From: Eledone cirrhosa | Taxonomy: Eukaryota | DNA length: 64,000 bases | Direction: 5' to 3' | Assembly: GCA_964016885.1 (NCBI GenBank) | Contig: OZ024759.1 | Location: 22,754,001 to 22,818,000 of the forward strand | Shown: in pieces, positions 14,734 through 39,062 of the stretch | Numbering within the stretch: the stretch's first letter is position 1 | How the letters are laid out: the number at the start of each line of letters is the position of its first letter | Notes under the pieces: generated by a model | What the model saw: only the letters and a program-made list of their open reading frames with translations | Told to the model about the DNA's origin: nothing | Databases searched by the model: none | Translations under genes and position numbers: made by a program

Positions 14734-14905
14734 ATAGGAAAAAGTATGACCCCGACGGAAGAGCTCAAACCAGAAATAGACGTCTAAACGGCTTGATCTC
14801 TGCCGTCGGGGTCATACTTTTTCCTATTACCCACTCTACTACCCTAAGTATTGAGTACTCTGGTGCGTTATGGTCCATCTGGTTCCTTACCACATTTCCT
14901 TCGCT
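14734..14905 (+). mobile_element. Hairpin-plus-tail element in (TA)n, family H1 copy 1 (PLE-like inverted pseudo-LTR)
   Basis: Arms 14734-14768 and ~14794-14827 are inverted, followed by an ~78-nt tail. Homologous to 16452-16647 and 38888-39062. Confidence 0.7.
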
Positions 14906-15691
14906 ATATATATATGAAGGACTAACTTTATTCTTTTTTAACCCATTTGCAACCACGCAGCACGTTTGTTCTCATATTCACACATATATTTTCCCCCGCT
15001 GTGACCCGTCTATTTCGTTCTTACTGCTTCCTATTTCTCTGTATCTTTACCCTCTCTAACAGTCACTCTCTCTGTTAGCCTCTTCCTCACCCTTCACTCA
15101 CTCACTCTCTGCTACTACCTCTCCTACTTCCTCCCGTTTGACCTGTGCGTAATTCTTTTCTCGCACACGCTTGACCAGGCTGGTTCCCCTTTTCTCTCTC
15201 TCGTCTACGATTTCACAGAACTTATGGACTGGACTCCTTCTTCCTCCCGTTTGACCTGTGCGGAATTCCTTCCTTGCTCACATTTCGACTAGGTTTGATG
15301 GTCTTTATTCTCTCTCGTTCACGATTTCACCGAACTTATATTCATGGAAATGTGGGATTTGACTCTTTCTTCCTCACTTTTCGTTGCTTTACCATCTTTG
15401 TTTGTTTACACTCTCGCTCGTTCCCCTTATTTACGTGTCCCATCGACTTTCTTTAGCCGTTGCTCGCACCAACCGGGGGTATATGGTCTTTAAAGCGATG
15501 AAATACCAATGATGGTTGGAAGATCACTGATGAAGGACTAACTTTATTCATATATATATATATATATATATATATAGAAATAATAAGGTTAAGGGTCAAA
15601 GCTGCAATTCTTTGCTTAAACTTTAATCTGTTATTTTAATAAATTAGTATATATATATATATATATATATATATATATATATATATATATT

Positions 15692-15930
15692 CGTCTAAGA
15701 ATAAAGGAACAAAGAGCCAGTGTTGCATCATAACATATTTAATACCATATTACATATGTTTCACTGTCGATGAGCTCGAGGAACGATCTATTATTGATCG
15801 AACCTGACTCTGGAATCGAAAAACTCTTTGTTCCTTTATTTTTATACTATTATACTCTGCTCTGCTCGAGCATCGAGTGCTCACCCGTCATACCGCCTAA
15901 CGAACGCAATTTTCTTGCTCCGATACACCT
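15692..15930 (+). mobile_element. Hairpin-plus-tail element in (TA)n carrying the 3' half of a hammerhead on the minus strand
   Basis: AATAAAGGAACAAAGAG (~15700) is inverted at ~15825. Minus strand has a long hairpin then GAAAC ATAT GTA. Tail TACTCTGCTCTG..GCATCGAGTGCTCACCCG..CATACCGCCTA is shared with 23573-23620. Confidence 0.7.
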
Positions 15931-16451
15931 ATATATATATATATATATATATATATATATATATATATATATATATAAAAATCAATAATAATGAGTTCAA
16001 ATCTCAGGCGATCATTTACAATGAAATAGCTCGAAGAAAAGATTATTTCTGAGCCGTGTAATATAGGTTAACACAAATCAATATATTTGATAAACACAAA
16101 TATCCTCATATTTATGTTTGTATTGTAAATGACCAAGTTAGCTAGATAGAAATATACTAATAATAATATTACAGTTTGCCTATCATGACTTAAGATAATA
16201 CATCATAAATCAACAAAAACATATATACATATATATATAAATATATATATGTCCCGGGCTCAATCGGGGGTGACCAGAGTTAGTAAGGTACTCAATATAT
16301 TAATAGATTGTAAAGTTCAATAGAGAAATGGTTTCTACAGGACGAGAGCAGTTTCATTCAAAGGAAACCATCAAGAATCCTGGTGATTTCTTTTGAATGA
16401 AACAGTTCTATATTAACCTTGATATATATATATATATTGATATATATATAT

Positions 16452-16647
16452 ATAGGAACAAGTATGACCCGACGGCAGAGCTCAAGCAGTTTCGACGGCT
16501 ATTTCTGGAGTCCAGAAATAGCCGTCGAAACGGCTTGAGCTCTGCCGTCGGAGTCATACTTGTTCCTATTACCCACTCTACTACACTAAGTATTAAGTAC
16601 TTTGGTGCGTTATGGTCCATCTGGTTCCTTACCACAATTCCTTCGTT
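16452..16647 (+). mobile_element. Hairpin-plus-tail element family H1 copy 2
   Basis: ~58-bp arms 16452-16509 / 16511-16569 with a 1-nt loop, plus the same tail as copy 1. Confidence 0.75.
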
Positions 16648-16690
16648 ATATATATATCCAGTACCATCTTATCCTCACGAACTTGTCTTC

Positions 16691-35290: not shown

Positions 35291-36161
35291 GAGTGTTTGT
35301 AGTGACAAGCGGTAACAACACGAATGAACCGATGAAAGGTTAAAGATACTTGTAAACGTATTCAGGATTATGAATGTATTTTCAACCACAACAATGCTCT
35401 CCCTTGCCTCATGTTTCAAAATATTGCTCGTTCTTTCACTTTTAACCTGTAGTGAATCTTTTAATGTGCTGCTGCGCTCTAATTGACCATATTAAACCAT
35501 AGCAAGGCCCCTAGGATTTCTGATATTTTGGGCCCTCTCTGGAACTTCAGTCTTTCACCCAACTATAAAAAAAAACAACTCCAAAACGGACGGACTTCCT
35601 AGTCCCTGCGGGTCGTGAAGGCTTCACACTAGTCAGCCTTATGAATAATACGACCCTCACCTTTAGATGTTCTAAACAAGTTAGACAAAATCTTTTCTTC
35701 TTTCTTCTTAGCGAATGACGCAAAGCTTCGTTAATACATTACGATGTCTATTTATTTTTAATGGTATTTTAATAATATTTTATCTCGAAAGAGACAAATT
35801 TCAAGGCTACTTAACTTCGATTATTTCAAAAGAACACGTGTATCTGGCTGTATTTTTTAAAAAAGGAACATTCGCATTAAATTATTTTAAGAAAAAAAAA
35901 TAATAAACAAAAATGAAAAAACAAAATGACATGAAATACACTTGACATAAAATGACAATGTTATTAGTACTGTTAAAATGGTAATTTTTTTTTTCTTGGA
36001 GAGAAAAAGAACGGAAAAGAGAAAGACAAAAAAAAACAACACAATAATCACAACACCTGAAAAAAAAGAAGAAATATTGGGTCGTCAAGTATGAAATTTG
36101 CATAAAACATTAACAAACTTTGTTTTTTCTACAAATTTCATATTTGACGACATAATATATA

Positions 36162-36473
36162 CCGTATTTGCCAGGGTATTGGACGCACTATAAAAAAAAA
36201 TATAAAAAATCTTTCCTGCATCCAATACGTCCGTATCTCCGATGGAAGGCCGAATTGAGAGTGAGGACAATCATGGTTTAAAAAAATTTAGTTTATATTA
36301 CTAATACACAAATACAATTTATATAAGCAAATTGATGTCGAAAAATCATTGAAATAATTTTTAATAAATATATGAAGAAATCTACTAAAATTCTTTTTTT
36401 CCCCCTGAAAATGTTCTTGTAAAACCAGTGGGCGTCTTATACTAAGAGGCGTCCAATAGGCCAGCAAGTACGG
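36162..36473. mobile_element. Non-autonomous Tc1/mariner-superfamily (Tc2/pogo-like) element
   Basis: TA|CCGTATTTGCCAGGGTATTGGACGC ... GCGTCCAATAGGCCAGCAAGTACGG|TA: imperfect TIRs with TA TSD and subterminal GCGTCTTATA repeat. Confidence 0.7.
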
Positions 36474-36549
36474 TAAATAAAAATCCAACAATTTTCATAT
36501 CTGGTGAAGCTAGGATTGTTCAAATTGTCCATTTGTATATTTAGAACCT

Positions 36550-37980
36550 ATCGGCGGCGAATTGAGAGTCGTAAGGATGTCGGATAGAATGCTTTGTGGT
36601 TTTAGTTCCGACTCTCTGCTCTCTGAGTTCAAATCCTGCCGAGGTCGATTATAAAAGTACCAATCAAGTACTGGGGTCGATTCTTCCTCTATACCTCTTT
36701 CTCACTTCTTTTCTCTCACTCTCTATCATTCTCTTCTCTGGAAGAAATCTGCTGAATTCAGCCGTGGAGAGGAGAGAAGAGATGGGTTTCACCAGGTTTT
36801 AAAATGCCCTGGAAACACCGTATGTCAATATGACGCTTCTAGACCTCCCCCAGGAGTTACGGGTTACGGGTTACGGGTCCATACATTCATATATAGAACG
36901 CAAAGAGCCGCTTTATACATTACTATACACATATCTTGTACATTAAGTTATTGGAAGCAAATTTAAACACTTTTCATTCAGAGTCCGAATCCTGCCGACC
37001 CACTATCCCCAAAGAAAAAGAAGTGGCTTTTTGCTTAAATTAGAAACCATTATTTTATAGGGCGGCGAACTGGCGGAGTCGTTGGAATGTTGGATAGAAG
37101 GCTTTCTGGTATTAGCTTCCGCATCCTGCGCTCCAAGTTTATATCCCACCGAAGTCAACTTTGCTTTCAATATTTTTTTTTTTCTGAGGCCGATAAATAA
37201 ATTATCAGTCCAGTACTGGAGTGAATTCATTATCTGTATCTGTGTGGATTGGGCGGTGGATTGGCAGTATCAGTAGAGAGTCGGACGCCATGCTTTCCAG
37301 CATAGTTACGTCCCTTTACGATCTGAGTTCAAATCCCGCCGAGGTTCACTTTGCCTTTCATCCTTACGGGGTCGGTAAAATAAAGTACCAGTAATGCACT
37401 GGATAATTGCTGGCCTTGTGCCTAAAGTAGAAACAATTATCTGTATCTGTGTGGATTGGGCGGTGGATTGGCAGTATCAGTAGAGAGTCGGACGCCATGC
37501 TTTCCAGCATAGTTACGTCCCTTTACGATCTGAGTTCAAATCCCGCCGAGGTTCACTTTGCCTTTCATCCTTACGGGGTCGGTAAAATAAAGTACCAGTA
37601 ATGCACTGGATAATTGCTGGCCTTGTGCCTAAAGTAGAAACAATTATCTGTATCTGTGTGGCATTTTCTCCTGTTCTATTTCCCTCCTTTTATGAAAGAA
37701 TTTGACTCTATTCAAACCTTGAAAGAGGTGATGGCTTCACCAAGGTTAAACACCTAAGACACGCCGCATGTCATAACGATGACCCTACGTTTCCACCAGG
37801 AATTCAGAGCTCATGTCACGGCATTATCATTTTGTTTGGCAGTAGCGGTGGAGGGTCGGACGCCATGTTTTTCAGTATAGAGTTAACTTTGCCTTTCATT
37901 CTTACGAGGTCGATAAAATAAAGTACCAGTAATGTACTGGGATAATTGCTGGCCTTGTACCAAAAGTAGAAACAATTATT
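36550..37980 (+). mobile_element. SINE family A cluster including an exact 207-bp tandem duplication (37229-37661)
   Basis: ATTATCTGTATCTGTGTGG at 37229, 37436 and 37643 with identical SINE bodies between. Further copies at ~36550, ~37060 and ~37840. Confidence 0.85.
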
Positions 37981-38887
37981 ATTTTGTGTCGTTATAAAGT
38001 CTTTCTATTATATTCTCAAATCATCCAAACAACTTTGGAGATTTGGGATTGTTTGTTTGTGAGATTAGAAAAAAACATTTGGAAAATCTGGGGGAAAAAA
38101 AACCCCTCCAAAAATTAGTAGAAATCTGCAGAAAATTTCTGTCTCGCGTCACGGAGAAGGTACCTCAACTGTGACACCAGAGATTTAATAGCAATCCTAT
38201 CGATACGATACAATCAATCCAACGTCCATGTTTACATTCAATACAATATTCAATTAAATATTATTTAAAAAAATGTGTATTTGAACAATCCTACCTTAAT
38301 GAATAATGAATATAAAGTAAAGAATGGTTTCAATAAAATGAATTAAATCAAATATGACTCAATATTGTTATTATTACTGCCTTGAAAAAAAAAAAAAAAA
38401 TATATAACTATTATTTTTCTCTCATTGTTATTATTCGGGTTAATAAACAAAGAATAAAGTCAACTGACTCACCCCCTCCAAATCCAATAGGTTTGCAAAA
38501 CAGTGAAGATTTTTCAAGAAATTCCAAAGGTTCTCTCTTGGGGGGTCCCTGGAATGAAAATATGTACACAATTATATCCACGGGTCTAGATAAGAGTAAT
38601 CGCAAACTTCATATTCGTGTACTAAAAAGACTCATAACATGAGTGCAGGTACATACACCTACACACACACACGCACACATATATATACACACACACACAC
38701 ACACATATATATACACACACACACACACACATATATATACACACACACACACATATATATACACACACACACACATATATATACACACACACACACATAT
38801 ATATACACACACACACACATATATATACACACACACACACATATATATATATATATATATATATAATATATATATATATATATATAT

Positions 38888-39062
38888 ATAGGAGTAGGTA
38901 AGACCCCGACGGCTGAGCTCAAGCCGTTTCGAATTAGCCGTCGAAACGGCTTGAGCTCAGCCGTCGGGGTCTTACCTACTCCTATTACCCACTCTACTAC
39001 CCTAAGTATTGAGTACTTTGGTGCGTTATGGTCCACCTGGTTCCTTACCACATTTCCTTCGT
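38888..39062 (+). mobile_element. Hairpin-plus-tail element family H1 copy 3
   Basis: Perfect 45-bp arms 38888-38932 / 38941-38985, 8-nt loop, same tail, (TA)n on both sides. Confidence 0.78.

Follow-up and report, generated by a model that had tools for sequence, protein, structure and literature searches.

A 64,000-nt stretch of contig OZ024759.1 (the window; microsatellite-rich eukaryotic DNA, of which 16-26% is masked) carries three copies, A, B and C, of a short hairpin-forming family, H1. We propose, with a probability of about 0.75, that these copies are heavily 5'-truncated insertions made by the enzyme of a Penelope-like element (PLE) through priming at two sites. A PLE-type origin in the wider sense, which includes a snap-back route, is very likely. 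The hairpins are most likely an integration footprint, as an earlier model-made description of this DNA (the sequence-only reading) had suggested.

All three copies lie on the plus strand, each with a (TA)n run on both sides. GGA directly follows the left run, the right arm ends in TCCTA, and the tail between this end and the following TA array is exactly 78 nt long in 3 of 3 copies. The tail ends in TTCCTTCG(C/T) in every copy, occurs on one side only and has identical boundaries throughout. An 18-nt tail pattern returned three matches in the window, against 0.04 expected, and no H1 copy besides A, B and C was found there. The inserts measure 168-192 nt. The sequence-only reading had described the same copies, tail length and tail end, although TATAGGA starts one base before the positions that it gave. 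Its TATA is indistinguishable from the (TA)n array that flanks it, and a TA target duplication is not discernible since the sites lie inside TA arrays. The right-hand TA runs are 11, 11 and 10 nt long (14905-14915, 16647-16657 and 39063-39072) and the left-hand runs 27, 15 and 25 nt. The near-constant length on the right, with a post hoc chance of ~0.01-0.03, may reflect the cut position or a (TA)5 carried by the element.

The 5' and 3' termini of H1 are not complementary to each other. A MITE (miniature inverted-repeat transposable element) of Tc1/mariner type (TA-GGA...TCC-TA), joined to a constant 78-nt neighbour, would fit the observation that TA bounds the hairpin alone on both sides. However, the true ends of the element are not inverted repeats, the tail accompanies all three copies and 4 of the outer 11 bases differ in C, though a transposase site should presumably be conserved. 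We consider such an origin scarcely credible, in line with the earlier view that H1 is not a transposing MITE.

Alignment of the six arms in one orientation revealed that the two arms of each copy behave differently. The direct (tail-side) arms are 55 (A), 56 (B) and 52 nt (C) long, and their starts fall within a 5-nt span of the template (~0.005 if starts are taken as roughly uniform over 24-134 nt). The inverted arms vary: 32-35 (A), 55 (B) and 42 nt (C). Counted from the first G, the paired arms are 32 bp in A (35 with one mismatch), 55/56 bp in B and 42 bp in C, leaving unpaired a 1-nt apex in B and 8 nt in C. The loops of A and C are the contiguous, B-like inner part of the tail-side arm, left unpaired. 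The arm and loop sizes first described (~35/25, ~58/1 and 45/8) are reproduced once the terminal TA is counted, while the idea of different fold-back points is not, since only the inverted arm varies. In 3 of 3 copies a 5'-truncated inverted copy stands head to head with a direct copy. At the junctions, the two arms overlap by 2 nt in C (GA), and also in A (CC) provided that one substitution is allowed, while a single G lies between them in B. Copy B folds with z = -17.8, and none of 200 shuffles folded as well.

Five columns differ between copies and are equal in both arms of each copy, so the mirrored copy-specific variants described earlier are genuine. Over the outer 32 columns, within-copy differences number 2, 1 and 0 and between-copy differences 3, 6 and 6. 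Arms are thus closer within copies (0-2 of 32 nt) than between them (3-6), the outcome in keeping with the earlier proposal. Changes private to one arm (6/266 nt, 2.3%) are as frequent as changes private to the tail (6/234, 2.6%; Fisher p = 1.0), which indicates that the arms were identical at insertion and have drifted freely since. These equal rates argue against ongoing conversion between the arms. A sequencing fold-back artefact was rejected: the arms of A and B have private mismatches, there is no inversion of the flanks, and three loci have the same boundary.

The mirrored changes of C are clustered, with 5 in 42 arm columns and 1 in 78 tail columns (p = 0.02). Four of these changes align the C arm end with the first tail bases in register (9/10, against 5/10 in A and B), and 1 of 81 possible variants matches the tail start as well as the C arm end. 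At 38972-38996, beside the inner boundary, the last 13 nt of the C arm are nearly a copy of the first 12 nt of the tail. The clustered variants probably go back to a single event, slippage or templated copying, or to an ancestral duplication that was kept, and there are therefore fewer independent mirrored events than is apparent.

These variants also bear on a pre-formed, B-like palindromic master that would move as a unit, with A and C losing part of the left arm by microhomology-mediated deletion and the arms being converted. The direct-arm starts do cluster at the apex of B, one deletion each with 2-nt microhomology derives A and C from B, and microhomology deletions have been reported in PLE copies (PMC3846280). 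Such a history would, however, require conversion of the 6 mirrored changes and of none of the 6 arm-private ones, which occur at the tail rate, and deletion of the same arm both times. We regard it as improbable.

Other elements in the window share the layout of H1. Among 36 inverted-repeat rows, which are not independent, 11 have their left outer end at most 5 nt from a TA array, against a base rate of 1.6%; masking of TA arrays inflates this flush count but cannot produce one-sidedness. Ten of the flush rows are distinct. Two are symmetric and eight have an extension of 36-129 nt on the right only (the 129-nt end of the longest being uncertain), namely the three H1 copies and the elements at 14359/15579, 15691, 22601, 23366 and 42296. 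Possible minus-strand cases lie at 53155 and 16345. Complete hammerheads occur upstream of the tail in 2 of the five non-H1 elements. A full hammerhead descriptor, adjusted after the motifs had been seen, found 3 complete motifs in the window (+5289, -23499 and -42382), against 0.025 per shuffle (1 match in 40 shuffles). In four related hammerhead motifs, 6 of 16 pairs are changed on both sides, a result reached in 3 of 500 shuffles; the sample is only these four sequences, and helix II is 64% paired. The family concerned (5258-5519, 15691-15929, 23366-23660 and 24690-24845) has a hammerhead with a long branched helix II, a CCG(T/A)(C/A)GA core and covariation in helices I and III.

The orientation of this family is given by its direct copy at 5258, and with it the inverted arm is the longer one at 15691 and 23366. 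Plain fold-back of a first complementary DNA (cDNA) is therefore insufficient there without a later deletion. The single template for both arms that had been claimed earlier is supported; plain fold-back as the general route is not. In the family 14359/15579, the direct arm ends at one point and the inverted arm 36 nt earlier. Three single copies of it lie at 22372, 23714 and 28161, and its 36-nt tail, which matches the published PLE tail size, is optional. The arms at 14359-14391 and 15579-15647 enclose copy A and another insert, as nested insertions into a central TA run. At 22599-22853 lies a near-perfect palindrome within TA arrays, with 108-bp arms, no loop and a ~40-nt tail. The element at 42296-42825 has a TA run in the loop, an extension of up to 129 nt and 134-bp arms; each arm carries a minimal hammerhead, of which the one in the inverted arm is complete. 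A symmetric, tail-less 270-bp inverted repeat at 41108-41883, with both ends flush with TA arrays, is either MITE-like or a PLE pair without a tail.

Alternatively, a single cDNA could prime itself by fold-back at its truncated end, copy itself, stop 78 nt short of its start and join the target. B and the element at 22601 are perfect palindromes with a 0-1-nt apex, in A and C the inverted arm is contained in the direct arm and overlaps it by 2 nt, as expected of snap-back, and self-priming has already been proposed for PLE palindromes (PMC3846280). Against this, the inverted arm exceeds the direct arm at 15691 and 23366, the tail is optional at a fixed point in the family 14359/15579, and in vitro data place start sites at the boundaries (PMC11167929). 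As a general account self-priming is unlikely, though it may explain perfect palindromes such as B. It differs from two-site priming in route alone; both are PLE-type.

In copy B, the direct arm of H1 contains GAAA, a 4-bp stem III (CGGC/GCCG) whose loop includes the palindrome GAGCTC, and a GUC triplet that precedes the arm/tail boundary by 19 nt. By its sequence, this motif would be the 3' half of a hammerhead. It is intact in B and C and damaged in A, with a chance background of ~0.011 per 56-nt arm. The CUGANGA half is absent, as expected of truncation within helix II. Rfam gave no hammerhead among the best 150 of 444 rows for the whole window, all of these being microsatellite-driven microRNA matches below threshold; for copy B it returned only microRNA-type fold matches, all under gathering scores, and for the inverted arm at 42293-42530 it listed no hammerhead. 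Rfam is evidently insensitive here, since none was listed even where the descriptor finds a complete hammerhead.

One frame per strand is open across all three copies. Pfam matched 0 of 4 H1 open frames, and phmmer gave only three weak matches to them (E 5e-5 to 3e-4), each of 6-24 stretches, which we regard as uninformative; a coding role of H1 was rejected on these results. Direct arm and tail together showed no significant RNA structure. The tail folds no better than shuffles (z -0.39 to 0.0) and has a weak 4-bp hairpin near its end. That hairpin would suit a non-autonomous Helitron/DINE-1-like element whose 5' inverted repeat is terminal and pairs with a subterminal one at the 3' side; in DINE-1, too, the 5' repeat is terminal and its 3' partner internal (PMC2374699). 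Yet the H1 arms are 32-56 nt long and variable at the outer end, against conserved 13-bp subterminal inverted repeats, the target is (TA)n rather than TT, and central repeats are absent. With the tail folding as poorly as it does and hammerheads present in neighbours of the same layout, this origin is very improbable.

The sequence-only reading placed a programmed stop at the arm/tail boundary. In the one PLE studied in vitro, reverse transcription starts at two internal sites that bound the tail, and both strands of AT-rich DNA are cut and extended by the purified protein (Frangieh et al. 2024, PMC11167929). By analogy, the boundary is better read as probably a programmed start, because the tail of that PLE lies between two start sites. 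In PLE inserts, a 5'-truncated inverted copy lies alongside, one end bears a tail of 30-40 bp and, in Naiad and Neptune, (TA)n is the preferred target (Craig et al. 2021, PMC8557442). For H1, the biochemistry of PLEs suggests that a GIY-YIG endonuclease would cut both strands within a (TA)n array, TA flanks being observed in 3 of 3 copies. One target end would prime reverse transcription at an outer start site, the end of the tail, giving tail and direct arm, and the other would prime at an inner site 78-80 nt upstream, giving the inverted arm. The fixed ends of H1 are observed; their role as start sites would follow from PMC11167929. Both cDNAs would end early, in or before hammerhead helix II, and be joined head to head across microhomology of 0-2 nt or, where the palindrome is perfect as in B, by snap-back. 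Since both arms would copy the same source RNA, source variants would be mirrored and later mutations unmirrored, which is the pattern observed. By the same analogy, the hammerhead and the (TA)n target point to a Neptune-type clade. The copies themselves are most likely inert debris, with neither a complete ribozyme nor an open reading frame (ORF).

Several points weigh against this proposal. The tail is 78 nt long, roughly double the published 30-40 nt (~36-129 nt in the neighbours). H1 contains only half a hammerhead, which is damaged in A, and Rfam lists none. The clustering of direct-arm starts within 5 nt is not predicted by random truncation. In the 40 of 285 window ORFs that were scanned, Pfam found nothing but LINE (long interspersed nuclear element) remnants, and there was no PLE reverse transcriptase or GIY-YIG domain in these or in the H1 open frames. 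The sample is three H1 copies only, the flush count is inflated and the hammerhead descriptor was fitted to motifs already seen. Head-to-head palindromes have, moreover, earlier been interpreted as self-priming on an antisense template (PMC3846280). H1 thus works like a PLE insert and is an unproven member, because no PLE ORF was found in the 40 of 285 ORFs or the H1 frames scanned, the tail is long, the hammerhead partial and the starts clustered.

H1 could also be a ~136-nt non-coding passenger of a PLE enzyme rather than debris of a long element. Its template would be bounded on the 5' side by the palindrome apex or by hammerhead helix II, would have no working ribozyme and two reverse transcription starts 78 nt apart, and the hairpin would be rebuilt at each insertion. 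We hold this version to be possible, if doubtful. If it is true, start-site spacing would be family-specific (~36, 40, 75-90, perhaps 129 nt), and thousands of mini-hairpins would form a natural record, across the genome, of how PLEs prime at two sites and repair the junctions.

Positions of the H1 copies and their parts within the window
Feature	Position	Strand	Remarks
(TA)n array left of copy A	14710..14736	.	27 nt; insertion target
Copy A	14737..14904	+	first G after TA array at 14737
Copy A inverted arm	14737..14768	-	32 nt; to 14771 allowing one substitution, giving a 2-nt CC overlap with the direct arm
Copy A direct arm	14770..14826	+	55 nt + TA; inner part is the 'loop'
Copy A putative hammerhead half	14785-14807	+	damaged (GAAA to TAAA)
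Copy A tail	14827..14904	+	78 nt, then 11 nt TA
Copy B	16455..16646	+	first G after TA array at 16455
Copy B inverted arm	16455..16509	-	55 nt; single G apex at 16510
Copy B direct arm	16511..16568	+	56 nt + TA
Copy B hammerhead-like 3' half	16527..16549	+	putative hammerhead
Copy B tail	16569..16646	+	78 nt, then 11 nt TA
Copy C	38891..39062	+	first G after TA array at 38891
Copy C inverted arm	38891..38932	-	42 nt; final 2 nt (GA) common to the direct arm
Copy C direct arm	38931..38984	+	52 nt + TA
Copy C putative hammerhead half	38943-38965	+
Copy C tail	38985..39062	+	78 nt, then 10 nt TA

Further features of the window were recorded. An insert at 14913-15549 is probably a minus-strand retrocopy with a target duplication: direct repeats of 20 nt border it, of which the left one contains a short T run and the right one overlaps a CUGAUGA core. 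An imperfect palindromic family at 13610, 16251-16421 and 30281-30559 has (C/T)TG(A/G)TGA...GAAAC motifs on both strands and possibly consists of older PLE remnants. A zf-RVT fragment of an L1-type LINE occupies 8040-8645 (Pfam E 2.5e-9). Tandem arrays with periods of 82 nt and 67 nt lie at 2233-4448 and 61531-62527.

The mechanism class is known, the footprint having already been described for PLEs (PMC8557442, PMC3846280); new in H1 are the tail length and the junction pattern. We found no description of the H1 family or of PLE tails of at least 75 nt in the literature; Repbase, Dfam, the primary papers of 2004-2006 and bioRxiv supplements lay outside this search and may hold both. A comparison of 8 window motifs with the supplement of PMC8557442, in which line breaks and cut cells can mask matches, gave one unrelated 10-nt match. 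The PLE integration steps that follow priming are, according to PMC11167929, still unvalidated. In less than 200 nt, a short head-to-head insert with exact ends preserves both priming sites and the joining step, so that a genome-wide set would test in vivo whether two-site priming or snap-back applies. With tails of 75-90 nt, the published rule of 30-40 nt would be widened. Such inserts are easily mistaken for MITEs or microRNA hairpins.

Among the known systems compared, MITEs, DINE-1, retrozymes and LINE twin priming each miss a defining feature. In the twin-priming inversion of LINEs, two primers act at one target and leave an inverted and a direct segment, and H1 would resemble it in both respects. 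The window holds an example within a LINE 3' fragment (40185-40920, DUF6451), which shows an inversion and a 41-nt duplication in the twin-priming pattern and has an uninverted relative at 10667-10934. There (40278-40903), upstream sequence makes up most of the inverted piece, which shares only 41 nt with the direct piece, at the inner end, whereas the inverted arm of H1 repeats the direct arm, beginning at a fixed site close to the 3' end. The abundant short interspersed nuclear element of the window may resemble those of octopus; if so, this agrees with reports of Naiads in Octopus and of Penelope in O. vulgaris. The former are (TA)n-targeting Naiads (PMC8557442) and the latter recently active families (PMC13282606).

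Non-LTR (long terminal repeat) retrozymes are, like H1, short, non-coding, hammerhead-related and thought to be PLE-derived (bioRxiv 10.64898/2026.07.22.740005). They occur as monomers or as tandems arranged head to tail and have a complete type I hammerhead, while H1 is head to head with half a hammerhead, and they were rejected because H1 has no head-to-tail units each with a complete type I hammerhead. Hammerheads with a palindromic helix III have been described in PLE repeats, some as pairs on opposite strands (Cervera and de la Pena, PMC4209133). The Penelope elements of Adineta vaga are long, ORF-bearing and flanked by target-site duplications, whereas H1 is a 168-192-nt remnant. Their inverted LTR-like repeats (pLTRs) resemble H1 in being head to head, with junction palindromes for which self-priming was suggested, and in having a tail (31 bp) on one repeat (Arkhipova et al. 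2013, PMC3846280).

The endonuclease-bearing PLEs Neptune and Naiad differ from H1 in their 30-40-nt tail, against 78 nt, and no ORF or partial tandem was observed in H1. Naiads lack canonical hammerheads (PMC8557442), while H1 has a putative 3' half and its neighbours complete ones. Neptune and Naiad share with H1 the inverted 5'-truncated copy at the 5' end, the one-sided tail, the (TA)n target and the lack of a discernible target-site duplication. Finally, in Poseidon PAc of Anolis the tail is ~34 nt long and the first start lies ~55 nt past the hammerhead cut, against 78 nt and, from the putative hammerhead cut, 19 nt in H1. PAc and H1 nonetheless share the order of hammerhead (a putative half in H1), inner boundary and tail, two fixed ends, an AT-rich target and a C/A-rich sequence at a boundary (PMC11167929).

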